A stretch of DNA of 24,335 bases from Candidatus Jordarchaeia archaeon (GCA_029856435.1 JAHQXB010000019.1:1-24335), one strand, 5' to 3'; counted from the stretch's first letter, positions 6,350-24,098 are shown. The notes: a model not told the origin generated them from the sequence alone. A program made the numbers and translations.

Positions 6350-7018
6350 TTAAGCATTTTGGATTTTTCTCCAGATTTTTTCCATTAGTTCCTCATAAGT
6401 AGTTCCTTTTGCGATTCTACTTATTATTTCTCGAAAACTTTTAACCTGGTCAACTAATGGCTTTGCTTCTTCCGGGAATCCTTTTAAATTATAAAGTTCA
6501 ATTCTAGTAGCGTGAATTATTGATTCTAATATTAAATTAGGAGCTCTACAGACCGGTGTGGCGCATGAATCAATTATTTCTGCGTCTTTTACGCTAAACA
6601 CCACTTCACATCTGTCTTCATCGATTTTTCGCATATTGTCTACTGTAACCTCTATGTAAGCCGAAGCGGAGACTAGAATTGGTGCATTTACAGTCTTTGA
6701 GGGCTTAAATATTTCCTCTCCCAGACTCCTTTTATCTAGTGACGTTCTGTAAAAAAGAGCAATGTCGTTTGTAATATTTATCACAGCGCATCCCTTTTCT
6801 TTGATGTTTCTGTAGGTTTGACTTGAAGTGAATATTTTTGCCACAATTTTCTCCATATCGGGGGTGCTTATTCCCATCGGCGCCGCGTTAGGCTTAGAAC
6901 TCCCATTGTAAGTTGTGAATATGGTCTCATATACACAATTTGGAATAATCTTTAATTTTTTGAGTATCTCGGATCCCATGCCACTCTCAACCACACTAAT
7001 ATGTTTAAAAAGACTCAT
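6350..7018 (-). CDS. DUF447-family protein (FMN-binding split-barrel-like, associated with tetrahydromethanopterin synthesis genes)
   Basis: YETIFTT..PNAAPMGI, SQTYRNI....AVINIT and RAPNLILESIIHATRI. The start may be a downstream ATG (MGSEIL). Confidence 0.85.
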   Translation of the reverse strand: MSLFKHISVVESGMGSEILKKLKIIPNCVYETIFTTYNGSSKPNAAPMGISTPDMEKIVAKIFTSSQTYRNIKEKGCAVINITNDIALFYRTSLDKRSLGEEIFKPSKTVNAPILVSASAYIEVTVDNMRKIDEDRCEVVFSVKDAEIIDSCATPVCRAPNLILESIIHATRIELYNLKGFPEEAKPLVDQVKSFREIISRIAKGTTYEELMEKIWRKIQNA

Positions 7019-9685: not shown

Positions 9686-10123
9686 ACGAATCTCCTCAAA
9701 ACCTTTTTTAAAACCAATAATCCCTTCAGTAAAGAAAATTGCTCTTTAAATTAGTACTTTACAAGCAACCACCGTCAACCTATAAAGGGTAAATTATGCT
9801 TGAATTTACTTTTCTCTACTAAAAAATTATTTGGGGAGTGTTATTAAACATTTACTGGTGAGTTTTCCATTAATTTTATGATTTGTATAGTCAAAAATCT
9901 GGAACGTTACTGCCCAAAGAAGTATTTAAGCCAACTTCGATATTTTTGTCCAATATTTGTAAACGTGTTTAGGGGCAAAGAATTAAATAAACAATTTGGA
10001 AAAGGGATTAATTGAAAGATTCGTGGAGAATATAATTTTTTTGTACTTGAATTCCAATTTTCATAATTAACGTTCTATTTGGATAGGGATTGGTTAAATT
10101 ATTGTTTTAGAGAGAGTTGGTTT

Positions 10124-10531
10124 ATGTCAAAAACTAAAGAATTTGAGGAAAGGGCTAAAAGGTACTTTGGGAAAGAGGTGACGGATAGGGATAGGGCGAT
10201 ATTTGAGGGTGGGATAACACTTGGCGCTATTTATCACCAATTTGTCGGAACGCCCATTTCTAGGGACGCCACTGTAGTTTCCGCACTTGAAAAGGCAATA
10301 GAGAAGACCATGTCACTTCAACCCTACATTGAAAGGGTGGAAGTCAAAATTGATACAAGTGAGATGCGCCAATCTTCACATCCCTATGACTATGGCGAAG
10401 TTGGAGGAAGGAACCTTTCAGTTAAGCTTGTATCTAAATATGGTAAAGCCCGAGTTTACATGAAAATGTTCTTTGTTCCAGAGCTTAATTATCCCCTTAT
10501 GTTTATAGAAAAAATTGAGGAGGAGAGTTGA
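10124..10531 (+). CDS. mptD: Archaeal dihydroneopterin aldolase
   Basis: DRDRAIFEGGITLGAIYHQFVGTP and ELNYPLM are signatures of the family. ATG 10124 is preferred over the ORF-track start at 10079. Confidence 0.9.
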   Translation: MSKTKEFEERAKRYFGKEVTDRDRAIFEGGITLGAIYHQFVGTPISRDATVVSALEKAIEKTMSLQPYIERVEVKIDTSEMRQSSHPYDYGEVGGRNLSVKLVSKYGKARVYMKMFFVPELNYPLMFIEKIEEES

Positions 10532-11970
10532 TGTTGGAAAGCCGAGGCGAAATATGGCCGTATCTAATTTTTCTACCAGCCGATCCCGAAAACCTGAAAA
10601 TATTTCTTACTGAAGTTCTGGGATCCCCCATAAGTTTGGATATTCTCGAAAAAATAAATGAGGGAACAGTATGCCAAAAAGATATTATTCGAAAACTTAG
10701 TTATTCAAATAAAACCATTCTTGCTCACTTAAAGACCCTAGTTGATTTACGTGTCATCCAAGAGTATTTCCAAGTTGAAGGCGGACGCAGAGTCATATGT
10801 TATAAGCCCAGCGATATAGGGCGCTGGATACTACTCATGTTTCAGAGAAAATTTTCCACAAATGATCTCGGTGAAATGTTAGAAGAACTTTTTAGTGTTT
10901 ATCTGAACAACGCGTTAGAACTATGCTTGAGCAGCGGTATTGACTTCACACGGTTGGCAACAATCTTTTCGAGATCTATGAGTGAAGGATTAATTAAACT
11001 CTCCGAATCTTCAAAATTGGAAACGCCCAGCGTGCTGGTATTCGGCTCGGTGGCCCTAGACACATTTTCTACTTTGGAGGAAAAAGGTGAATCAGGAGGT
11101 TCTAGGTTATTATACGAGCTGTACGAATTCCCAGGAGGCTCAGGAGGCAATGTAGCTGTTGCCCTCTCAAGGCTTGGTGTAAATACAAGTTTTATTGGAA
11201 AGCTAGGTGGAGACGCCGCGGCTTGGCAACTACTGAGTGATTTTATAAAAGAGGGGGTTAATGTTTCCGGCGTTGTAATTGATAAAGAGAAGAGGACTTC
11301 TAGGAGTTTCATAATTGCTGGGGAAACGGGAAAAAAGAGAACATATATTTATGCCACGAGAGATACAGCCCTATCAATTTCAAATCCTGACGAAATCAGA
11401 TGGAATCTTCTGAAAGATGCAGAGGTCTTCTACATAGGTGAAACCTTTCTTGAAATCAGCGAATTAATAGCAGGGTATGGCAAAAACCTTGGCAAAACAG
11501 TTGTATACCGCCCCACCATCCACTACTTAATCCAAGGTCTAGAAAAACTGGAGGGAATACTGAGAAATACAAACATTTTCATTATAAATGAAACGGGATG
11601 GCAAATCCTGAAGGAGAGGGGAGTCAAAAATAAAATGGAAGTTTTGGAAAAGGGGCCAGATATTTTCATAATTACCAGAGGAACCAAGGGTTGCGACACT
11701 TACACTAGAGAGTTTAGCTTCCATGTAGACGCTTATAGTGTTAAGACTACGGACGAGACTGGTGCTGGCGACGCATTTGCAGCAGGACTAATCGCCGCCC
11801 TATTGCAAGAAAAAGGTTTTGAGGAGTTAAAGGACTGCGTACTTTTTGCTTCTGCCTGCGCAGCTCTGGCTACCAGAAAAACGGGAGCAAGATCTTCATT
11901 ACCCAGTTTCGACGAAGTATTAGAGCTTTTAAAGAAGGAGCCTAAAGATGCCCAAAAAATTGAGCTTTAA
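10531..11970 (+). CDS. Winged-HTH (ArsR-like) plus PfkB/ribokinase-family kinase fusion protein
   Basis: N-terminal QKDIIRKLSYSNKTILAHLKTL (HTH) with wing. PfkB motifs PGGSGGNVAVALSRLG and DETGAGDAFAAG. ATG overlaps the mptD stop (TGATG). Confidence 0.85.
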   Translation: MLESRGEIWPYLIFLPADPENLKIFLTEVLGSPISLDILEKINEGTVCQKDIIRKLSYSNKTILAHLKTLVDLRVIQEYFQVEGGRRVICYKPSDIGRWILLMFQRKFSTNDLGEMLEELFSVYLNNALELCLSSGIDFTRLATIFSRSMSEGLIKLSESSKLETPSVLVFGSVALDTFSTLEEKGESGGSRLLYELYEFPGGSGGNVAVALSRLGVNTSFIGKLGGDAAAWQLLSDFIKEGVNVSGVVIDKEKRTSRSFIIAGETGKKRTYIYATRDTALSISNPDEIRWNLLKDAEVFYIGETFLEISELIAGYGKNLGKTVVYRPTIHYLIQGLEKLEGILRNTNIFIINETGWQILKERGVKNKMEVLEKGPDIFIITRGTKGCDTYTREFSFHVDAYSVKTTDETGAGDAFAAGLIAALLQEKGFEELKDCVLFASACAALATRKTGARSSLPSFDEVLELLKKEPKDAQKIEL

Positions 11971-12724
11971 CGAGTGGAACTCTTGGTACCATAAAATCAT
12001 CAAGGATTTTGGATACAGCGAAGATACAGACACGGAGGCAGCGCTGGTTCTTGAAAAAATTCTTGGCGACCAGAACCCAAAGGAACAGCTAAACCTTCTC
12101 AAAGAAAAAATCCATAATAAATGTGTTTTAATATATGGCTGTGGACCATCGCTTGAGAGAAATATTTCTGAAATCAAAAGAATAGGGCTAAATAAGATAT
12201 GCACCCAGATTGCCGCAGACGGCGCCACCTCAGCTCTACTCAAAGAGAACATTGTGCCAGAAATAATAGTTTCAGACCTCGACGGACGCATAGAGGATTT
12301 AATTTCGGCAAACAGTAAAGGTTCTATTTTAGTTGTTCACGCCCATGGAGACAACATTCCCGCCCTTAAAAGTTACGTGGGGAAAATGCCCGGGGTAGTG
12401 GTGGGAACGACACAAACTAAGCCCTTAACCCGCGTATTCAATTTTTTTGGATTTACCGATGGGGACAGAGCCATATTTTTAGCCCATGCCTTTGGCGCAC
12501 ACACAATTCTCCTGGCGGGATTTGACTTAGGTGAGAGGGTTGGAAAGTACTCAAAACCAGAATACAAGGAAGAAACGGCAATGACTCCAACTAAAAGGAA
12601 AAAGTTAGAATACGCTAAAGAACTGATAAAATGGTTAGCCTCTCAAACAAATACACTTATAGTCAATTTAACTGGAGCTGGGGAAGTAATACCCGGGATA
12701 AAAAATTTAAAATGGATAACTTGA
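11948..12724 (+). CDS. mptE: Archaeal 6-hydroxymethyl-7,8-dihydropterin pyrophosphokinase
   Basis: GCGPSL, AADGAT, IVSDLDG, VHAHGDN, GTTQ and GFTDGDRA. Overlaps the upstream gene by 23 bp. Confidence 0.9.
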   Translation: MPKKLSFNEWNSWYHKIIKDFGYSEDTDTEAALVLEKILGDQNPKEQLNLLKEKIHNKCVLIYGCGPSLERNISEIKRIGLNKICTQIAADGATSALLKENIVPEIIVSDLDGRIEDLISANSKGSILVVHAHGDNIPALKSYVGKMPGVVVGTTQTKPLTRVFNFFGFTDGDRAIFLAHAFGAHTILLAGFDLGERVGKYSKPEYKEETAMTPTKRKKLEYAKELIKWLASQTNTLIVNLTGAGEVIPGIKNLKWIT

Positions 12725-13338: not shown

Positions 13339-14103
13339 TTGACGCAACCAAAAATAATTGCAGTATCAGGAAAGGGTGGAGTGGGTAAGACGAGCTTTAT
13401 CGCTCTTGCCCTAAAAACTCTGCTAACGTCTAATCACGGGGAGATACTTGTGATTGATGGTGACGCTGACTCCAACCTACCAGAAGTTTTAGGAGTGAAT
13501 GTCAAAAAAACTGTGGGAACAATTGTGAATGATTTTAAAAGAAATATGGGTGGATTACCTCCAGGGGTTGACAAGAAGGATTACCTGGAGTCTCTAATCT
13601 TTAGCATCTTGCAGGAGGAAGAAAATTTCGACTTACTAGTTATGGGTGCAACTGAAAGGGAGGGCTGCTACTGCAGCGTAAACAATCTTCTAACAAAAAT
13701 AATGGACACCTTAACAAAAAATTATAAGTACACTCTACTAGACTTGCCTGCGGGTCTTGAACACGTAAGTAGAAGAACCAGTAAAAACATAAACCACATG
13801 TTCCTAATCACAGACGCTTCAAAAATGGGGTTGCAGACCGCAGCCCGAATTAGAGACCTAGCAAAGAGTCTCAAATCCAACTTCGAGCACATATACCTAG
13901 TCGGAAATAAGGTGACACCAGACATAGAACCTTTAGTAAAAGAGCAAGCACAAAAATACAATCTAGAATACGTTGGAAGCATCCCACCAGACGAGGAATT
14001 AGCACAATACAATCTGGAGGGAAAACCGCTACTCCTACTCCCAGAAACCAACCCCGCATACCAGACTGTGTCAAAAATTATAAAGTCCAAAATAACAGAG
14101 TAA
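13339..14103 (+). CDS. cooC: CooC/AcsF-type nickel-insertion ATPase (CODH/ACS maturation)
   Basis: Deviant Walker A GKGGVGKT, IDGDADSNL, metal-binding GCYC and DLPAGLEH.SR. Close to the ACDS operon. Confidence 0.88.
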   Translation: MTQPKIIAVSGKGGVGKTSFIALALKTLLTSNHGEILVIDGDADSNLPEVLGVNVKKTVGTIVNDFKRNMGGLPPGVDKKDYLESLIFSILQEEENFDLLVMGATEREGCYCSVNNLLTKIMDTLTKNYKYTLLDLPAGLEHVSRRTSKNINHMFLITDASKMGLQTAARIRDLAKSLKSNFEHIYLVGNKVTPDIEPLVKEQAQKYNLEYVGSIPPDEELAQYNLEGKPLLLLPETNPAYQTVSKIIKSKITE

Positions 14104-15861: not shown

Positions 15862-16020
15862 AACAGCACCGTCTAAACCTACACCCCCTTAACAAAAAAC
15901 ACAATCCGTACATAATCAACGCGACAAAAGGAAGTTACAAATACGTGAATATTCCATAATTTTTACTACAGATCCCTTTAAGGGGTATTATTTTATTTTA
16001 ATGATGAATGTTTTTATCTG

Positions 16021-16250
16021 GAGCTGAAGCTAGCAGCCATTCTGACCCAGCGTTAACCTTGCGTAGCTTTAGGTCTTCATCCCTCGGTTTCGTGGAGAGG
16101 CTTTCTCCCGGGGAACGGTTGAAGCAGTTACATCTCTTTTGCTTTCGGTAGGGGATGTTCCCAGTTGTGGGCCCTGCCCCCTTTGAGCTTTTTCGAACTT
16201 CCCGCATTCCGAGTTGGAATCGGCTGCACGGCACATATTATGTGCATGGT
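16021..16250. other. Unexplained GC-rich intergenic island with hairpins (ncRNA or decayed element)
   Basis: 122/230 GC by hand count amid AT-rich flanks. Hairpin at 16202-16223 and palindrome GCACATA-T-TATGTGC at 16231-16245. Confidence 0.3.
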
Positions 16251-16469
16251 TGTTTTTAAGGGATAATAGATTTTGTTTTTTTAAGCCCTGTTAACAGTTG
16301 GAATCAAGTTAACAAACTTTATTCTAAATAGAAGCAGTTTTAACACCCCTAACCTTTTACCACAAAGGTTTACCAGAACTAAGTGTTATTTAAAAGTGGG
16401 AGTGGATTTACTTTTGCCACTATTAAAATATAGATAGCAAGCATTTTTGGTGGAAGAAAAATTTTGTTT

Positions 16470-16614: not shown

Positions 16615-18384
16615 TTATTTCTTTATAGCGTCCGGAATCTTTTCTGGAGGTAAGACTTTAACTTTCCATTTTGTGGCGCTCTCAATGCTAGTCTTCAGAG
16701 ACTCGGCAGCCGGCGGAATGATGAGTTCCTTTTTAGTTATTTGCTCGTCAGCGCCGCCCTCTTGCATAACCTTTTTTATAGCTTCAGCATCAAGCTTCTT
16801 CTCTTTAACAGCAGTTTCAAAGTCTAAGCCCTCAGTATCCACGACAAGTAGCCAAGCTGAAGCGTTTGCATCAAGTAGTGGCCTCTTGATTTCATAGAAT
16901 GACTTGATGTTGTTTGTGGCGAGAAACACTGGACTTTCCTTACCGGGGTCGCCTACATATTTAAGACCCGTAGGTGCTCTATACTTGTCTCTCAGGAAGT
17001 CGCCGATGGCGCCGGAGTCCTTGGGGCCAACATACACGTCCCAACCGCTCAGATCTTCGATTTCGCCTTTGAATCTTGCAGCCATCCCGGGTATGATTAA
17101 AGCCCTGTGATTAACCTTTTCGGCGACCTTGAACTCAGCTAGAGCATCAGAAATGCTGTTGGCATTGAGCTGACCGCCGGCAGCGGAAGACTCAACGCCT
17201 ATTCCGCCCGTATCCATAATTATTAGCCAAGCATTTATTTTAGCTTGTTCTAAGTCGGATTTTACTGTGTATGCTGTTAGGGCAAAGTTTGTAGTTATCA
17301 TCACTGGACTGTTTTGGTCTGGTGTACCTATGGGCATTAGCTCAGGTGTTACCGCAGGGTGTATCCTGGGGTCTTCGTAGAGGTTGCTCACTAATACCAC
17401 TAGTGGTAAGAATGTCCAGAGTTCTGATGAGTGTATGATGAGTAGGTCGGCATATCTAGCGACTAGCATTGCGGATAGGACTGTTTCTTTGAAGGCGGTT
17501 TCTAGTCTTTCGCCTTCGGAAACTCCTTCTTTGCCTATCCATATTGTGGCTGGGACTCCTATGAGTGGCCAGCCCACATCTTTATCGTCCATCTCTATTG
17601 CAGCCCTTCGAAGCATAGTGAAGTTGTTTATGGTGTCTGAGAGTAATCCTTCTCCCCAGAAGGTTCCGGGGTCGAGAGCCAGTTCTTGAACTCCTGCTTG
17701 GTAGAGTGATTTTGCCAAGCTTTTTAGGAGATCTAGGTCTCCGGGTGCCGCTACCACTAGAGGTAGTTTTTCGCTTCTCGCGATTTCTCCTACTTCTTTC
17801 CAGTTGTCCTTGGTGGCTGCATAAAGTAGCGGCTTCTTCCCCGCCGCGGCTTTTATTCCCGCCTTTAAGCATTCGGGTTTAAGTGAGCATAGTATTATGG
17901 GCCAGTCGGTATTTTTCACGACTGTAGATACAGCTTTGGCAAATTTATTGGGATCGCCGGACACACATTTTATAGCTATAGCGTCCAGCATGAGGGTTTT
18001 TCCAATGTAGAAGGTTCCCCAGTGTGTGATGAGGTCTACCCTTTTTACTAGTTCACTTTCGTCCATCTCGTCGTGGACATCTATGGCTAATACTGTTGGG
18101 TTGTACCAAGTGAGCTCATGGCGACGCATAACTTCTTTTCCGCCAATGGTTTTGACGTGTTCACCTTCACCGAATCTTATAGCTCTTACTGGTGGTGTTA
18201 ATATTTCTTTGAGTTTATCGTAGTTTTTCTTGTTTTTAGGGTCTAGTATTGGTTTGCAGACTTCCAATTCTACTTCATGGTTGATGAGCTTGTAGGCGAA
18301 TGCCATACACGTGTCGTCACCGCACTCCTTGCAGTTAGTTTTGGGTAGTAAATTGTATACGTCTAAAGGTTTCAGCCTTGACAT
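16615..18384 (-). CDS. cdhE: ACDS complex gamma subunit (corrinoid Fe-S protein large subunit) with duplicated C-terminal domain
   Basis: N-terminal KTNCKECGDDTCMAFA...C Fe-S motif, TIM-barrel region, then SPVMITTNF/DTGG/IIPG/VGPKDS. An extra ~119-aa repeat follows. Confidence 0.96.
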   Translation of the reverse strand: MSRLKPLDVYNLLPKTNCKECGDDTCMAFAYKLINHEVELEVCKPILDPKNKKNYDKLKEILTPPVRAIRFGEGEHVKTIGGKEVMRRHELTWYNPTVLAIDVHDEMDESELVKRVDLITHWGTFYIGKTLMLDAIAIKCVSGDPNKFAKAVSTVVKNTDWPIILCSLKPECLKAGIKAAAGKKPLLYAATKDNWKEVGEIARSEKLPLVVAAPGDLDLLKSLAKSLYQAGVQELALDPGTFWGEGLLSDTINNFTMLRRAAIEMDDKDVGWPLIGVPATIWIGKEGVSEGERLETAFKETVLSAMLVARYADLLIIHSSELWTFLPLVVLVSNLYEDPRIHPAVTPELMPIGTPDQNSPVMITTNFALTAYTVKSDLEQAKINAWLIIMDTGGIGVESSAAGGQLNANSISDALAEFKVAEKVNHRALIIPGMAARFKGEIEDLSGWDVYVGPKDSGAIGDFLRDKYRAPTGLKYVGDPGKESPVFLATNNIKSFYEIKRPLLDANASAWLLVVDTEGLDFETAVKEKKLDAEAIKKVMQEGGADEQITKKELIIPPAAESLKTSIESATKWKVKVLPPEKIPDAIKK

Positions 18385-18401: not shown

Positions 18402-19637
18402 TTAGACCTTTGTGGTTACCCAGTTTAGTAGTGGGCTGGGTTTGTCTTTCTTTTTGGATGTGAGGTATTCAACTACGGTTTTGAAGATTTGTACACTGGC
18501 GGGGTGGAGCATCATGAAGATGTCGCAACCGTTCAGTGCTAGTGATAGTCCAGTGATAGCTTCCCATAGTGGCCCTCGAAAGTTTATGGTTCCCCATTCT
18601 GCTCCCTTCTTTTTGTCGCTCATGTAGGCTTCTCGGGCTCCCCACGCATTGGTGGTTCCTGAGGAAAGGGGCATTTGTAAGTCTTTTTCGCCTTTTAGAG
18701 CAGCCATCCTGATCCTTTCATAGACACTAAAGGAGTATTGTAGTCCGTATCCTAGCGCCGCAGTGGTGGCGTCTTGTACTATGTGATCTTTGGGTAGCCC
18801 AGCGTCTAGTAATAGTTGGTTCATTTTCTTTTGGTTGTTGACATCTAGTTGGGTCCATGAGAGCACGTTGTGGTTGTATTTTTTGGCGGCTTCGACTATC
18901 CGTTTCCAGTCAAGGTTTTCTGATGCCGAGTTTAACATGAGGCGTTCATTTTGGGCTGCGGCGGCTGCGGCCTCAAGGACTTCTGGGTCTTTGTCTGGAT
19001 TTCCCGATCCTCCTATGAGAAGGGGGGTGTCTATGGCTTGTAATACATCTTCGATGGTTTTTGCGGCTTTTTTAGCAGGTGTATCTTTGATGTAGGGATC
19101 GGTGCTGATAAGGTGTACGGTAACAAGATCAGCGCCATATTCCTTAATGGCCTTTTTAGCCCACTCTGCAGGGTCGTCCATTACTTCGTCGAAGTGGTCT
19201 TTGATGGGTTTGGGTAGGTTCATTCTCATGTCAAATACATCAAATGTAACTAGGGGTCGGTTGGGATTATCGTATTCGAAGCGGTAGAATGGCGGAACTC
19301 TTTCTCCGCCTATTTTTCGGATTTCTTTTCGGGTGCCACCTTCCTTTCTGGTTTGACCGAATTGTACCTCCACTATCTGGCCAGGATATTCCTGTATTGG
19401 TGGTTTGAATTTTTCTTCTATGAACTGGAAGGGTTTTACTGCAGGTACGGCTGTAGGTATGACACCCGGGGCTAGGGCTCTCGCTGCTGGGGGAGGAGCT
19501 AGGGCGGCTACTCCCGCCGCCATTTTCAACACTAGCTCGTCAGCCTCTATAGTAACATCTACTAGTTCTAGTTCGCCGAACTCCTCCAGAATTTTTAATA
19601 TGTCTTTGCCAAGCCTTGTAATATCATCTGTCGGCAT
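18402..19637 (-). CDS. cdhD: ACDS complex delta subunit (corrinoid Fe-S protein small subunit)
   Basis: IGGERVPPFY.F, FDVFD, GADLVTVHLISTDP, IGGSGNP.KDP and TTNAWGAREA. Confidence 0.96.
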   Translation of the reverse strand: MPTDDITRLGKDILKILEEFGELELVDVTIEADELVLKMAAGVAALAPPPAARALAPGVIPTAVPAVKPFQFIEEKFKPPIQEYPGQIVEVQFGQTRKEGGTRKEIRKIGGERVPPFYRFEYDNPNRPLVTFDVFDMRMNLPKPIKDHFDEVMDDPAEWAKKAIKEYGADLVTVHLISTDPYIKDTPAKKAAKTIEDVLQAIDTPLLIGGSGNPDKDPEVLEAAAAAAQNERLMLNSASENLDWKRIVEAAKKYNHNVLSWTQLDVNNQKKMNQLLLDAGLPKDHIVQDATTAALGYGLQYSFSVYERIRMAALKGEKDLQMPLSSGTTNAWGAREAYMSDKKKGAEWGTINFRGPLWEAITGLSLALNGCDIFMMLHPASVQIFKTVVEYLTSKKKDKPSPLLNWVTTKV

Positions 19638-19648
19638 TATCTATTCCT

Positions 19649-21136
19649 TCATTTTTTACCTTTTTCTTCTCTCTTGATTATCAATTTGTCAACTTTTATC
19701 TTCACGTTTTTGAAAATTAGTTGGAAACCTTCTCCTGGAGCCGCTCCAGGGATTCCGCCGGGTAGTTGCAGGACTCCTTGTAATAATGCTACGGGGACTC
19801 CTCCGGGCACCGCTGCCATTGTTGCGGGCATTGTTACTTGTGGAAGCGTATATTCTGTGGGAGCTGTCGGGTAGACTGCTTCTGCGGGGGCTTCGGTGAC
19901 CTCAGCTACTACTTCTTCTTTCCACTGTTTGACAATGGGGTGTCCTTTGTCTTTGAGCCATTGTCTTAGTTCTGTGGTGTTGGTTACGTCTTTTTCGGTG
20001 GCGATTTTATCTCTCAGTCCTTCTGGTATAGCGTCTAGAACTCTTTCTTTTACGTTGGAGGGCAACCATACTACTCTATTCCATCCTCCGTCGGCTTGCA
20101 GAAATCTTGGGCTTCGCATATATTCTATTGCTATGCCGTTGAATCCTTCAACCTGTTTGCCTCCTCCAGTCTGGTTGGCCATTGTAGAGAATGCTAGACC
20201 GTTTACTGCGGTGCCTTCGTAGCCTCTGTCTACGATTCCTATTCCATCCACTTCAGGTATGTAGAATGCTATGGCTTCAAAGCATCCACAGCTGGTGTGT
20301 GGATATCCGAACATGCTGTACATCCAGACCCTTTCTACTTCGCCTAGTGATTTCTGCTTTGCTACCTCGTTTACTCCTGAGTATTCTCCGTGAATTTCGT
20401 CAAGTAGTTCGCCTTTTGGAACCATAAAGTTGGGTCCTTTGGGGTCTACACGCGCAGCTGCGCGAGCGTCGAACCAGTTGATGGCGCCACACAGTGAGAT
20501 TCTGTTTGGGGATATGATGCATACGTGGCTGGGTGCAAAGCTTTGACATAGGACACACCCGTAAAATTCAGTTACATCTTCGTCTTTCATTCCCCTGGCC
20601 CTTGCATCTCTTGCCTCATATATTTGTAGTGCTTTCTTATACCACTCGGATATTTTCTTGGGGTCTGTTATGAATGTTACCTGTATTTTTTCTATTATGG
20701 GGAACTCTGATTTGAAGAGTCTGGTGAGAACTTTTCCCAAGAATTGGAATGAGTTGAATCCTTTCTTGTAGGAAGCTTTGCTTAGTCTCAGCCAAATATC
20801 GTATCGCTGGTTTAGGTGCATGAACCCTTCCACGAAGTTTATGAATTCGTGTATTCGCCTCTCAAGAACTGCCTCAAGGTCTTTTTCTATTTCTTTGCCT
20901 GCGACTTCTACCAGTATGCCTAAGGGGTAGGATTTTCCTTCCTCCAGGTCTTTCAAGTCTGGTCCTTGTATAATGATTTTCCCATCCTCGATTTCTTTCA
21001 TGTCACGGGCTTGCACTAGTTCGAATTTCTGTTCGACGTTTGGTCCGCCGAACTCAAATTGCATATCTTTTCCGCGAATTCGTTCTCCTTCGTAGACTAC
21101 TCCTACGTCCACAGGGATGTCGTCAAACATGCTCAT
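19649..21136 (-). CDS. cdhC: ACDS complex beta subunit (acetyl-CoA synthase, A-cluster)
   Basis: YEGERIR, HLNQR, GCVLCQSFAPSHVC and HTSCGCFE. AGGAGG Shine-Dalgarno site upstream. Confidence 0.97.
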   Translation of the reverse strand: MSMFDDIPVDVGVVYEGERIRGKDMQFEFGGPNVEQKFELVQARDMKEIEDGKIIIQGPDLKDLEEGKSYPLGILVEVAGKEIEKDLEAVLERRIHEFINFVEGFMHLNQRYDIWLRLSKASYKKGFNSFQFLGKVLTRLFKSEFPIIEKIQVTFITDPKKISEWYKKALQIYEARDARARGMKDEDVTEFYGCVLCQSFAPSHVCIISPNRISLCGAINWFDARAAARVDPKGPNFMVPKGELLDEIHGEYSGVNEVAKQKSLGEVERVWMYSMFGYPHTSCGCFEAIAFYIPEVDGIGIVDRGYEGTAVNGLAFSTMANQTGGGKQVEGFNGIAIEYMRSPRFLQADGGWNRVVWLPSNVKERVLDAIPEGLRDKIATEKDVTNTTELRQWLKDKGHPIVKQWKEEVVAEVTEAPAEAVYPTAPTEYTLPQVTMPATMAAVPGGVPVALLQGVLQLPGGIPGAAPGEGFQLIFKNVKIKVDKLIIKREEKGKK

Positions 21137-21180: not shown

Positions 21181-21723
21181 TCATGCTTTTAGTTCAGCTA
21201 CTAAATCGTCCAATTCTTTCTTCCATTCGCTTATCTTTAGGTTGTTAAAGCTAAAACTGGCGTTGGGTTGGTACTCTCTGTCCAGACTTATGGTCAAAAT
21301 GTCCGGGGCAAAGTGTTTCAGAGTGGAGAGAGACTGGCTTTGAATATAGTATATTCCTCCCAAGTATAGTACACAGTCGTAATGTCCTTTTCCGTCTAGT
21401 CCCTTCCATTTTGGGTCTCTTAGCCTGTTTGTGATGTCCGCTAGCTGCATATCCACTGCCTTGTCGAATCCTGCTTGTTTTAGTTCTTTAACCATGTTTG
21501 CTGTTGCAACTACTGGAATTCCTGCCTTACCGATTTCAACCGCATAGTCCACTAGTCTTTTTCCGTCCAACTCTCTGATTGCGTTGGCACTGACAATGAG
21601 TAAGCATCTCTTCTTCTTTTTTATCATCTTGGCGGCGACTTGTCCGCTCATAAGGACGCTAGCATTTTTTGATCCGCCCCAGTTAGCACTTTGCCAAGGG
21701 GTTGGTGCTTTAGCAGCCATCAT
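21181..21723 (-). CDS. cdhB: ACDS complex epsilon subunit
   Basis: PTPWQ.A, W.GLDGKGHYD, YYIQSQ.LS.LKHFA and A.FSF.N. Lies between cdhA and cdhC; AGGAGG upstream. Confidence 0.93.
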   Translation of the reverse strand: MMAAKAPTPWQSANWGGSKNASVLMSGQVAAKMIKKKKRCLLIVSANAIRELDGKRLVDYAVEIGKAGIPVVATANMVKELKQAGFDKAVDMQLADITNRLRDPKWKGLDGKGHYDCVLYLGGIYYIQSQSLSTLKHFAPDILTISLDREYQPNASFSFNNLKISEWKKELDDLVAELKA

Positions 21724-21734
21724 AATTTCCTCCT

Positions 21735-24098
21735 TTATTTTTTGGCTTTAACTAATCTTTCGTACAGTGTGGGGTCTGGTATCTCAGAAGGTTTCCAGTT
21801 TCTGTCCTTAAGAACTTTCATTAGGTCTTCCTTGAAGGTCACCGGGATGTCGCCCTCAACCCTTATGTATTTATGTATATCGTCTGGGAAGTCCTTTCCA
21901 TACTTTCTGCGGTAAAGGTCTATCCAGTGGCTGAGCTTAATAGCCCTACCCTTAGAGGTGTCGTTGGGCCTCAAACACAGCTTGGCTGTCTGCACAATGC
22001 ACTCATCCATATTTTCAGCCGCAACTATTAAGTGTTCAGGAGTTGGACCGACATACACTTTGTCTCCGGTTCGAGCATTGTACACATACCAATCTTCATC
22101 AATGTCGCTGCGGCCGAGGTACATTCTTCGATACTTGGAACCATGTGGCCCCACAATCACGGGTATACCATACATGTTAACGCCTGTTGCTATGGAAGCT
22201 GCCTTTTGACTGTAGGCTCCCCAGGCAACACCAACAGCTCCCACTCTGTTTAGAACATAGTCTGCTATCTCTTCAAAGTTTGCTCTAAGTGGTCTTCTGG
22301 CGAATATGTTTGCAATCTTTATCGCTGCTCCCACAATATGACTATTGGATACGCAGGAGCCGACGTTTACAAGTCCTCCGGCGTCGAAGTCACCGGGATA
22401 TTTTTCGTAGAGTGTTAGTCCTTCTTCGTCCTTGTATCTGGCGATGTCCATGGCGGAGCATCCGCTGACAACTACTATGTATCTCCTTTTGAGGAACTCT
22501 TCAGCCATCTTAGCCACCTCTGTGGGCCCTGCGGGATAGTTCGCACAACCAACGTAGGCAATGACACCCGGAATCTCACCTAAGACGATTGGGGCACCCA
22601 CGTTTCGTATCTCGGTGTCTTTAATTGGACCTCGCCCAACTCTAACTTTATAAACATCGCTTTTGATTTGGTTCTGAGACGCCGCATCTATCAATTCCTT
22701 AACGGGTATATCCTTCCTGCAGGCGAGGCTGCACCTTCCGCAGCCCACACAGTCCTCGTACAGAGACTCAAGCAGGCTTAGGTCACCTGAAGCAGCGGCC
22801 TTCACCGCTTCCGAGGTGAGCAAGTCATTTGGACACGCTCTCTCACAGTCATAACACTCGGTACACAACTTGGCAAATTCGGTAATCTGCTTCTTGTCGG
22901 GGACGTTCTTAAACTTCTTTCTTAGGGGAGCAAGTTTCATTGCTGTTCTAACCGCAACCTCACCGGCCTTCTCGCCATCAAGTATGAGCGCACCATTTGC
23001 CTCACCTGCCATAGCATATTTGACTAGGTCCTCAACTATCTCCTGTACGGGATCAAAGGTTCTATCTTTTAGTCCCAAGCAGTTTTTCTCATTTGTGGCT
23101 ATGAACGCTGCTTTAACCTTGGCAGCCTCCTCGATAATATCGGTACGAATACACTGCTCATCAACCATTACAACATCGGGAATACCAGACCTGACGAAGG
23201 TTAGCTGCCGAGCTATTGAGCCTATAATCTTATAACCAGGATTGTATCGGGTTAAGTCTAGGGCGGTGCAGCATATTCCAGCAAGCTCTAAGTTTTCCTC
23301 CAAGTTGTGTTCACGTAAGTAATCTATAACGCCCACACTGGGAATAACATTGTGGCCAATTACTAGGATCATGGGTTTTTCTGGGTCTACACAACCCAGA
23401 CCAATTTCTACTAGGGGGGTGTTTCCCTCACCCTTTGGAAAATTGAGTGCTGTGATCTGAATCAGGTCGGCTGTTTCCATTCCCACAAAATCCATTAAGC
23501 CGATGTGTAGGGCCTTAGCCTCAAAGTCAATGTAGCTTCCTTCTTGTCCAGTGTGGCATGCCGCAACTCCTTGTACTATTTGGTTCTCTACATAGTCTAA
23601 CACTTCTTCTAGGTCGCCTAGTTTCTGAGGCCTTATCCCGAGCACATTTCTAATGATGGGAGCCTCTACTGCAATGTCATTACCTAGGTTAATGGGATAG
23701 TCGGGGCCGACTCTTTTGATGAGGTCATGTAGCATGTGTCTTGCGTGACCTGCATGCGCTGAGGCGCCTATGGTACAAGCTAGGAGAACTATTCTTCCCT
23801 GAGTGTCTTCTATTGTGATTCCGCATGCTCCGCGTTTGCCTGCAGTTAGGTCGCAGTGACCATAGGTACAGAGGCAGCAGCGGTCGCAGAATGGAGCGTA
23901 GAAGGGGCGATACCTTTTAAGAAGTCTGTCTACAGTCCAAGATCTAAGCTGTGCTAGAGTGGGTTTGGGTGTGGGTCCCATAGGTTCCCATTCTTCCTCT
24001 TCCACTATGACTTTGCCTATTTGTACCTCTAGGTTTTTGAATGATGCTAGGGGTGTTTTGAGCTCGTCTGCCTTCAAATATCCCGAAGTTTTTGCCAT
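21735..24098 (-). CDS. cdhA: ACDS complex alpha subunit (Ni-Fe-S carbon monoxide dehydrogenase)
   Basis: MGPTPKP, CDRCCLCTYGHC...ACG, C-cluster ligand motifs GHNV, CCT, DEQC, GCAN, GCS and GSC. Two ferredoxin-like motifs CTECYDCERACP and CVGCGRCSLAC. GGAGG upstream. Confidence 0.98.
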   Translation of the reverse strand: MAKTSGYLKADELKTPLASFKNLEVQIGKVIVEEEEWEPMGPTPKPTLAQLRSWTVDRLLKRYRPFYAPFCDRCCLCTYGHCDLTAGKRGACGITIEDTQGRIVLLACTIGASAHAGHARHMLHDLIKRVGPDYPINLGNDIAVEAPIIRNVLGIRPQKLGDLEEVLDYVENQIVQGVAACHTGQEGSYIDFEAKALHIGLMDFVGMETADLIQITALNFPKGEGNTPLVEIGLGCVDPEKPMILVIGHNVIPSVGVIDYLREHNLEENLELAGICCTALDLTRYNPGYKIIGSIARQLTFVRSGIPDVVMVDEQCIRTDIIEEAAKVKAAFIATNEKNCLGLKDRTFDPVQEIVEDLVKYAMAGEANGALILDGEKAGEVAVRTAMKLAPLRKKFKNVPDKKQITEFAKLCTECYDCERACPNDLLTSEAVKAAASGDLSLLESLYEDCVGCGRCSLACRKDIPVKELIDAASQNQIKSDVYKVRVGRGPIKDTEIRNVGAPIVLGEIPGVIAYVGCANYPAGPTEVAKMAEEFLKRRYIVVVSGCSAMDIARYKDEEGLTLYEKYPGDFDAGGLVNVGSCVSNSHIVGAAIKIANIFARRPLRANFEEIADYVLNRVGAVGVAWGAYSQKAASIATGVNMYGIPVIVGPHGSKYRRMYLGRSDIDEDWYVYNARTGDKVYVGPTPEHLIVAAENMDECIVQTAKLCLRPNDTSKGRAIKLSHWIDLYRRKYGKDFPDDIHKYIRVEGDIPVTFKEDLMKVLKDRNWKPSEIPDPTLYERLVKAKK

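Follow-up and report, generated by a model that had tools for sequence, protein, structure and literature searches.

The closest described relatives of the protein considered here are the large subunits of CFeSP (corrinoid iron-sulfur protein), which correspond in archaea to CdhE, the gamma subunit of ACDS (the acetyl-CoA decarbonylase/synthase complex). They contain an FeS domain, a triosephosphate isomerase (TIM) barrel and a corrinoid (B12)-binding domain with a cap helix. Within bacterial complexes the B12 domain turns through ~47 degrees and the cobalt comes within 6.7 Å of the A-cluster nickel (10.1101/2024.08.05.606187), and in Methanosarcina the protein, there termed CoFeSP, serves as scaffold for the ACDS supercomplex (PMC13370988). 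Here we describe cdhE in a stretch of DNA of 24,335 nucleotides from Candidatus Jordarchaeia archaeon (GCA_029856435.1, JAHQXB010000019.1:1-24335), referred to below in its full length as the window. Its product of 589 amino acids has the layout of a normal CFeSP large subunit, with FeS domain, TIM barrel and corrinoid-binding domain (copy 1), followed by a diverged copy of the corrinoid-binding domain (copy 2).

In this fold the corrin lies above strands 1 and 3, the nucleotide tail is held between the sheet and the helices, and a short cap helix off strand 2 is found under the corrin (PMC13331322; the role of the cap helix also in PMC4934906). The residue nearest the cobalt is uncharged, being Thr in CFeSP and Leu in Mmp10 (PMC13331322), and in HgcA a Cys ligand is present at the position under the cobalt (PMC7305189). 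Polar contacts common to CFeSP and HgcA include Thr60 and Thr66, which hydrogen bond to N3 of the benzimidazole and to the phosphate (PMC7305189). The class 2 cobalamin-dependent radical SAM enzymes (Mmp10, DUF512) have the same small cobalamin-binding fold and an uncharged residue under the cobalt (PMC13331322).

The single-domain large subunits (2H9A/2YCL of C. hydrogenoformans, 4DJD of M. thermoacetica, 9FZY of C. autoethanogenum and the archaeal ACDS gamma subunits) are collinear with residues 1-468 of the window's CdhE (E 5e-80 to 3e-65). They end ~15-25 residues past the VGP motif whereas here a second, 120-residue copy of the B12 domain follows. Copy 2 resembles HgcA in having a four-stranded Rossmann fold of the CFeSP type, cap helix included, and the profiles NF040863 and NF043039 match both copies weakly. 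However, the cobalt of HgcA is ligated by a Cys on the cap helix, and HgcA also has a transmembrane domain; copy 2 has neither. There is no Cys, and hence no N(V/I)WCA motif, in either cap helix of CdhE, the scores fall far short of the HgcA cut-offs (NF040863, 101.6 bits against 275) and the protein ends at residue 589 with no further domain after copy 2. The Mmp10-type enzymes differ in having another enzyme context and a single cofactor-loaded domain, and their structural match to copy 2 is weak (9cg1, E 0.05).

Domain organisation of CdhE

The cdhE gene occupies positions 16615-18384 of the window, stop codon included, on the minus strand, as do all the parts of the gene given below. It was assigned using PF04060, PF03599 and the CdhE equivalog NF003195, for which the whole protein scores 630.4 bits against a cut-off of 306. 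The N-terminal [4Fe-4S] domain comprises residues 1-60 (18205-18384), with the PF04060 match at residues 13-45 (E 3.4e-12). Its C21, C26 and C43 were invariant in 70 homologues and C18 nearly so (at least 90%). The central TIM-barrel domain, residues 61-340 (17365-18204), was assigned from the PF03599 match at residues 69-463, and this region of the AlphaFold2 (AF2) model shows strand/helix alternation with a predicted local distance difference test score (pLDDT) mostly >90.

Copy 1, residues 345-469 (16978-17352), is a canonical corrinoid-binding Rossmann-like domain with a terminal helix and aligns with residues 309-439 of 2h9a. Its cap helix, residues 397-403 (17176-17196), was located from the AF2 model and the 2h9a alignment, in which S399 is placed opposite Thr374 of the C. 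hydrogenoformans CFeSP. Copy 1 thus has the residues expected of the family, namely T364, T370 and a Ser (S399) on the cap helix. Copy 2, residues 470-589 (16618-16977), is a degenerate second copy with its own terminal helix. In the equivalent of the cap helix, residues 522-528 (16801-16821), small residues have been changed to Lys-Glu-Lys, and T524 is at the Thr374 position.

The alignment of residues 347-454 with residues 472-579 requires no gaps and contains 36 identities in 108 positions. Comparison of the two halves by BLASTP gave an E value of 4e-21, and the BLOSUM62 score of the repeat was 161, compared with -94 ± 21 in 20,000 shuffles (z = 12). Pfam CdhD and NCBIfam NF003195 each matched two stretches of CdhE, and copy 2 alone matched positions 326-435 of the 450 in the NF003195 profile (E 5e-23). 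The solved CFeSP large subunits (2h9a, 4c1n, 4djd and 9fzy) end at about CdhE residue 461-468. The full-length AlphaFold model has a pLDDT of 92.3, with ~89 for the linker between the copies, and the secondary structure of copy 2 is that of copy 1 shifted by 125 residues, strand beta0 and the terminal helix included. This offset indicates that a whole domain of ~125 residues has been duplicated and that the linker is only ~5 residues long.

These results bear out an earlier note, made from the sequence alone, which had described the gapless tandem repeat and a protein longer than usual. The substitutions listed there (TNF to TNN, SAAGG to AVKEK, IPG to IPP and VGP to VLP) are all present, and the two C-terminal matches that it predicted were found as domain hidden Markov model (HMM) envelopes at residues 345-458 and 470-583. 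The note had also named findings that would refute it. One of these, a different fold for copy 2, was not what the structure prediction gave (see below). Another was an assembly artefact. The tandem copy in CdhE is real and is no artefact of assembly or of gene calling, in which a repeat would have been collapsed or two genes fused wrongly. A contig from an independent hot-spring metagenome study bridges the junction and covers all of the 1.1-kb stretch at ~95% identity; its coding region is free of indels, which occur only beyond the stop codon, downstream. The same double-domain gene is carried by the closed chromosomes CP147778, CP147779 and CP147780. The gene is one unbroken reading frame, and with only 33% identity between the proteins the two copies could not have been mis-assembled onto each other. 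Nothing was found in favour of an artefact, which is therefore scarcely credible.

Conservation of the fold and of the cofactor face

Further tandem proteins were sought by translating 400 Asgard genomes in six frames and searching them with copy 2. Tandem matches in open frames of 589-623 residues were found in 15 genomes belonging to four families: the window's genus (f1; six of six genomes searched), a second family of the same order, Jordarchaeales (f2; five of five, copy 2 48-51% identical), the Atabeyarchaeia (f4; three genomes, 39-43% identical) and a single metagenome-assembled genome (MAG) labelled Baldrarchaeia (f5). The remaining Asgard families have a single domain in frames of ~470-500 residues.

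The predicted fold of copy 2 is that of copy 1. When modelled alone with AF2, copy 2 gave a pLDDT of 93.4 and a four-stranded Rossmann-like fold with beta0 and cap helix, as in the functional CFeSP-type domains. Foldseek superimposed it on 4c1n, 4djd, 2h9a, 2ycl and 9fzy with template modelling (TM) scores of 0.89-0.93 and a root mean square deviation of 1.4-1.6 Å over 123 residues. At E ≤ 0.001 only these five CFeSP B12-domain entries and the HgcA model 9a0b were matched.

Copy 2 is also under purifying selection, as judged from the sequences. Mean pairwise identity within the window's genus is 81% for copy 2 and 85% for copy 1, and the ratio of nonsynonymous to synonymous substitution rates (dN/dS) for copy 2 is ~0.06-0.08, a rough value given that dS is saturated in most pairs. 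Within the window's genus dN is the same for the two copies, and it is 2-5 times higher for copy 2 in f2 and f4.

The residues contacting the cofactor were taken from PMC7305189 and PMC13331322. Only 13 residues are invariant in 70 CdhE/AcsC sequences, T364 and T370 among them, and in 107 single domains these two are conserved to 97-98%. Of the columns conserved in the family, copy 1 keeps 84%, including T364, T370, G433 and G453, compared with 56% for copy 2. The equivalent of T364 in copy 2 is A, T or V depending on the family (A489 in the window) and that of T370 is S, D or E (S495 in the window). F367 is replaced by N, A or G, L369 by K or R, A402 by K or S, and G433, the Gly of IPG, by P, E or A. 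Thus F367, L369, T370, A402 and G433 are replaced in all four families. G453, the Gly of VGP, is L, V or A in three families and is kept in f5. The position under the cobalt is T or S in the window's genus, E in f2, Q in f4 and E in f5.

The four families were also compared element by element, with conservation expressed as mean BLOSUM62 scores. The loops after strands beta1-beta4 and the cap helix score 3.7-6.5 in copy 1 compared with 1.5-2.75 in copy 2; for the loops TNF, DTxG, IPG and VGP, which lie at the sheet's C-terminal edge, the values are 4.3-6.5 and 1.5-2.75. The loops and cap helix are therefore the best conserved elements of copy 1 and the least conserved of copy 2, whereas for strands beta2 and beta3 and helix alpha1 conservation does not differ between the copies. 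Among the surface elements of copy 2, helix alpha1 is the one best conserved, with the motif I-K-x-aromatic-Y...P-L. Decay of the loops and cap helix with retention of the core shows that selection has been lifted from the old cofactor face and not from the fold.

Possible roles of copy 2

Given these results, we consider it likely, with a probability of roughly 70%, that copy 2 is a pseudo-B12 domain without cobamide, retained for a structural or docking role. The loss of family columns, the Glu or Gln under the cobalt and the relaxed conservation of the cofactor face all suggest that copy 2 no longer binds cobamide, as the earlier note had thought probable. The host genome has a single cdhD, so there is no second cap subunit for a second cofactor. 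Since the linker of ~5 residues that joins it to the swinging domain's terminal helix is confidently modelled, copy 2 would move with that domain as one body or would anchor it. It could restrict or park the movement of the swinging domain, or dock CdhE to another ACDS component, and the surface of helix alpha1 would be the likeliest contact site.

Several observations weigh against this assignment. In the window's genus and in the Atabeyarchaeia some tail-contact positions of copy 2 are still Thr or Ser, and in the window's genus so is the would-be site under the cobalt. The match of T364 and T370 to Thr60 and Thr66 of HgcA rests on their 6-residue spacing and invariance, not on a printed alignment. 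Chain F of 9fzy, the large subunit of the C. autoethanogenum CoFeSP and a genuine corrinoid binder, has TVDF for TTNF and ISS for VGP; since it lacks the VGP Gly and the TTNF Asn, not every residue lost from copy 2 can be essential. A docking role is something we infer, and the sizes of CdhD (397-437 residues) and CdhC in single- and double-domain lineages showed no change that would point to a partner.

Copy 2 might instead be a second working corrinoid carrier, with two methyl-shuttling cobamides in tandem and a raised flux, as with the tandem lipoyl or acyl carrier protein domains of other swinging-arm enzymes. Its fold is the same, the cap helix is in place, selection on it is strongly purifying, some of the Thr/Ser tail contacts survive and 9fzy indicates that the family tolerates some motif changes. 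However, the loops of the cofactor face and the cap helix are the parts of copy 2 that differ most between families. A Glu or Gln lies under the cobalt in three of the four, an acidic residue takes the position of the phosphate-binding Thr in two, the Gly of IPG is gone from all four and that of VGP from all except f5, and there is only one CdhD to cover a corrinoid. We therefore regard a second carrier as rather unlikely. A broader proposal, in which copy 2 actively regulates methyl shuttling in the ACDS of a few Asgard lineages only, either as a second carrier with a carboxylate or amide under the cobalt or as a cap or parking domain for the corrinoid of copy 1, is also unlikely. If it were true, capping or parking of the copy 1 corrinoid between the pterin site and the A-cluster would change methyl hand-over.

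Rossmann-like domains switch ligands readily and copy 2 has about twice as much Lys and Arg as copy 1, so that re-use of copy 2 to sense or bind another small ligand can also be envisaged; a different ligand had been among the suggestions of the earlier note. One would look for such a site where the cofactor site was, along the C-terminal edge of the sheet, and this edge is poorly conserved between families; the relaxation that argues against a second cobamide argues equally against a new ligand there. It does not speak against a docking or oligomerisation module or a regulator, which the earlier note had also suggested. Furthermore copy 2 matches no other family profile, and its structural matches at E ≤ 0.001 are the five CFeSP entries and the HgcA model only. 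A different ligand is thus decidedly improbable. Even less probable is that copy 2 is a functionless relic undergoing slow decay. Its faster evolution relative to copy 1, with tree branches about twice as long and the raised dN in f2 and f4, would agree with decay. However, the frame is open and of full length and the fold confidently predicted in all 15 genomes of the four families, and the low dN/dS, together with a dN equal to that of copy 1 within the genus, is not that of a relic. The reading as a cobamide-free structural or docking module is consequently the one that we prefer.

Distribution and origin of the tandem domain

A profile made from copy 2 was searched against 5.8 billion proteins. 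Double-domain proteins scored 258-278 bits and single-domain proteins at most 109 bits. The groups matched were Freyarchaeota/Jordarchaeaceae/Jordarchaeum, Candidatus Atabeyarchaeum deiterrae, one 'Njordarchaeota' and one 'Baldrarchaeia archaeon'. The protein labelled Njordarchaeota is 84.5% identical to an Atabeyarchaeia protein and that labelled Baldrarchaeia archaeon is identical to the f5 protein. When a copy-2-specific peptide pattern was looked for in 185,579 species genomes, only records from Freyarchaeia/Jordarchaeia and Atabeyarchaeia were returned. With these copy-2-based queries no tandem CdhE was found outside the Jordarchaeia/Freyarchaeia, the Atabeyarchaeia and the one Baldrarchaeia-labelled MAG. 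Two other protein searches understated the spread because other families share a cluster or few words with the query: a word-based search with copy 2 found only relatives at least 72% identical, and an exhaustive search of 1.84 billion representatives at 50% identity found one double-domain representative.

In the survey of lineages, a check that the earlier note had proposed, the architecture is restricted to few Asgard lineages, and is neither widespread nor, in the literature searched, already described. It is not, though, peculiar to the host genome, being an old trait common to the Jordarchaeia/Freyarchaeia, the Atabeyarchaeia and one Baldrarchaeia-labelled lineage. Freyarchaeia and Jordarchaeia are names for one group and the Atabeyarchaeia are its sister (PMC11291895).

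One long protein, P0066 (631 residues), was considered as an independent double and rejected, as it has one corrinoid domain, at residues 508-618. The N-terminal extension of >150 residues that this implies makes it a different architectural variant of the CdhE family. In several database orthologues of 562-563 residues (P0009-P0013, P0018 and P0019) no FeS Pfam match was found. Their gene calls begin at an internal Met27, so that the annotation cuts off the upstream Cys motif and the match is missed.

When 82 domain sequences were placed in a tree, the 15 from copy 2 all fell in a single clade with a Shimodaira-Hasegawa approximate likelihood ratio test (SH-aLRT) value of 99. The order within this clade (f5, f4, then f2 with f1) follows the order seen for copy 1, with branches roughly double the length of the copy 1 branches. 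From end to end the double-domain proteins align collinearly, with 51-63% identity. In a tree of the N-terminal 340 residues they form a well-supported clade together with three single-domain proteins, and for the same region an approximately unbiased (AU) test did not reject monophyly of the double-domain proteins (p = 0.35). The data, all from sequence comparison, fit a single gain of copy 2 with or without later losses. An internal tandem duplication of the whole ~125-residue unit, from strand beta0 through the terminal helix, most likely occurred once, in the shared ancestor of the Jordarchaeia/Freyarchaeia, the Atabeyarchaeia and the Baldrarchaeia-labelled lineage, with copy 2 retained since then.

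The cdh operon and its surroundings

The cdhE gene is the last of a minus-strand operon, cdhA-cdhB-cdhC-cdhD-cdhE, and adjoins cdhD. The other members are cdhA (21735-24098), encoding the carbon monoxide dehydrogenase (CODH) alpha subunit (PF03063 and ferredoxin-type 4Fe-4S domains), cdhB (21181-21723) for the epsilon subunit (PF02552), cdhC (19649-21136) for the acetyl-CoA synthase (ACS) beta subunit (PF03598 and PF19436) and cdhD (18402-19637) for the ACDS delta subunit, the CFeSP small subunit of 411 residues (PF03599, E 4.4e-70). The host genome is of 3.54 Mb in 181 contigs and ~98% complete. It contains a single cdhE and a single cdhD, the latter being the sole PF03599 gene besides cdhE. 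In all other operons examined cdhD and cdhE also abut, with the exception of L033 (G305:C134, 5472-7009), where ~1.5 kb separates the two genes in a single-domain Asgard relative of family f28.

The window also carries pterin genes related to tetrahydromethanopterin (H4MPT), among them an MptD-type aldolase, MptE and DUF447, as well as a CooC-like ATPase. These neighbours agree with an archaeal ACDS that depends on H4MPT. The pterin genes, which include a winged helix-turn-helix (wHTH)-PfkB fusion, lie at 10079-12724 and 6350-7018. The CooC/ParA-type P-loop ATPase (PF01656, PF10609) is found near the cdh operon at 13339-14103 on the plus strand and may be an accessory protein that inserts nickel into CODH/ACS.

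A gap of ~750 bp separates the usp gene from the end of cdhE. Its GC content is 29-33% except in an island at 15990-16270, where it is 47-55%. This island gave no Rfam or tRNA match and no open reading frame with a family match, and blastn against nine related loci with a double-domain cdhE did not find it. A small structured RNA or a remnant are possible identities.

Implications

Duplicated carrier domains are known from other enzymes. In the lipoyl domains of the 2-oxoacid dehydrogenase E2 component and in tandem acyl carrier proteins a mobile carrier has been duplicated and every copy keeps the site for its prosthetic group. In contrast, the cofactor site of copy 2 is degraded. The beta subunit of the Propionibacterium methylmalonyl-CoA mutase has a duplicated B12-binding module that has lost the cofactor and is kept for structure. 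It differs from copy 2 in having the MetH-type B12 fold, in being a separate subunit and in belonging to a different pathway. For CdhE/AcsC itself no description of a tandem domain was found in the literature searched, and the double-domain proteins are named in the databases as plain gamma subunits. The annotation 'subunit gamma' therefore hides the extra domain.

The CODH/ACS genes of Freyarchaeia and Atabeyarchaeia are expressed in situ, as seen in wetland soil metatranscriptomes (PMC11291895). For the Freyarchaeia/Jordarchaeia and Atabeyarchaeia part of the Asgard tree the tandem CdhE would be a clean shared derived character. The travel of the corrinoid domain is under active study, by cryo-electron microscopy of the C. 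autoethanogenum complex (10.1101/2024.08.05.606187) and in the ACDS of M. acetivorans (PMC13370988). A cofactor-less twin, long kept and rigidly attached to the swinging domain, would offer a way to probe what limits and guides the movement of the corrinoid domain and what holds the supercomplex together.

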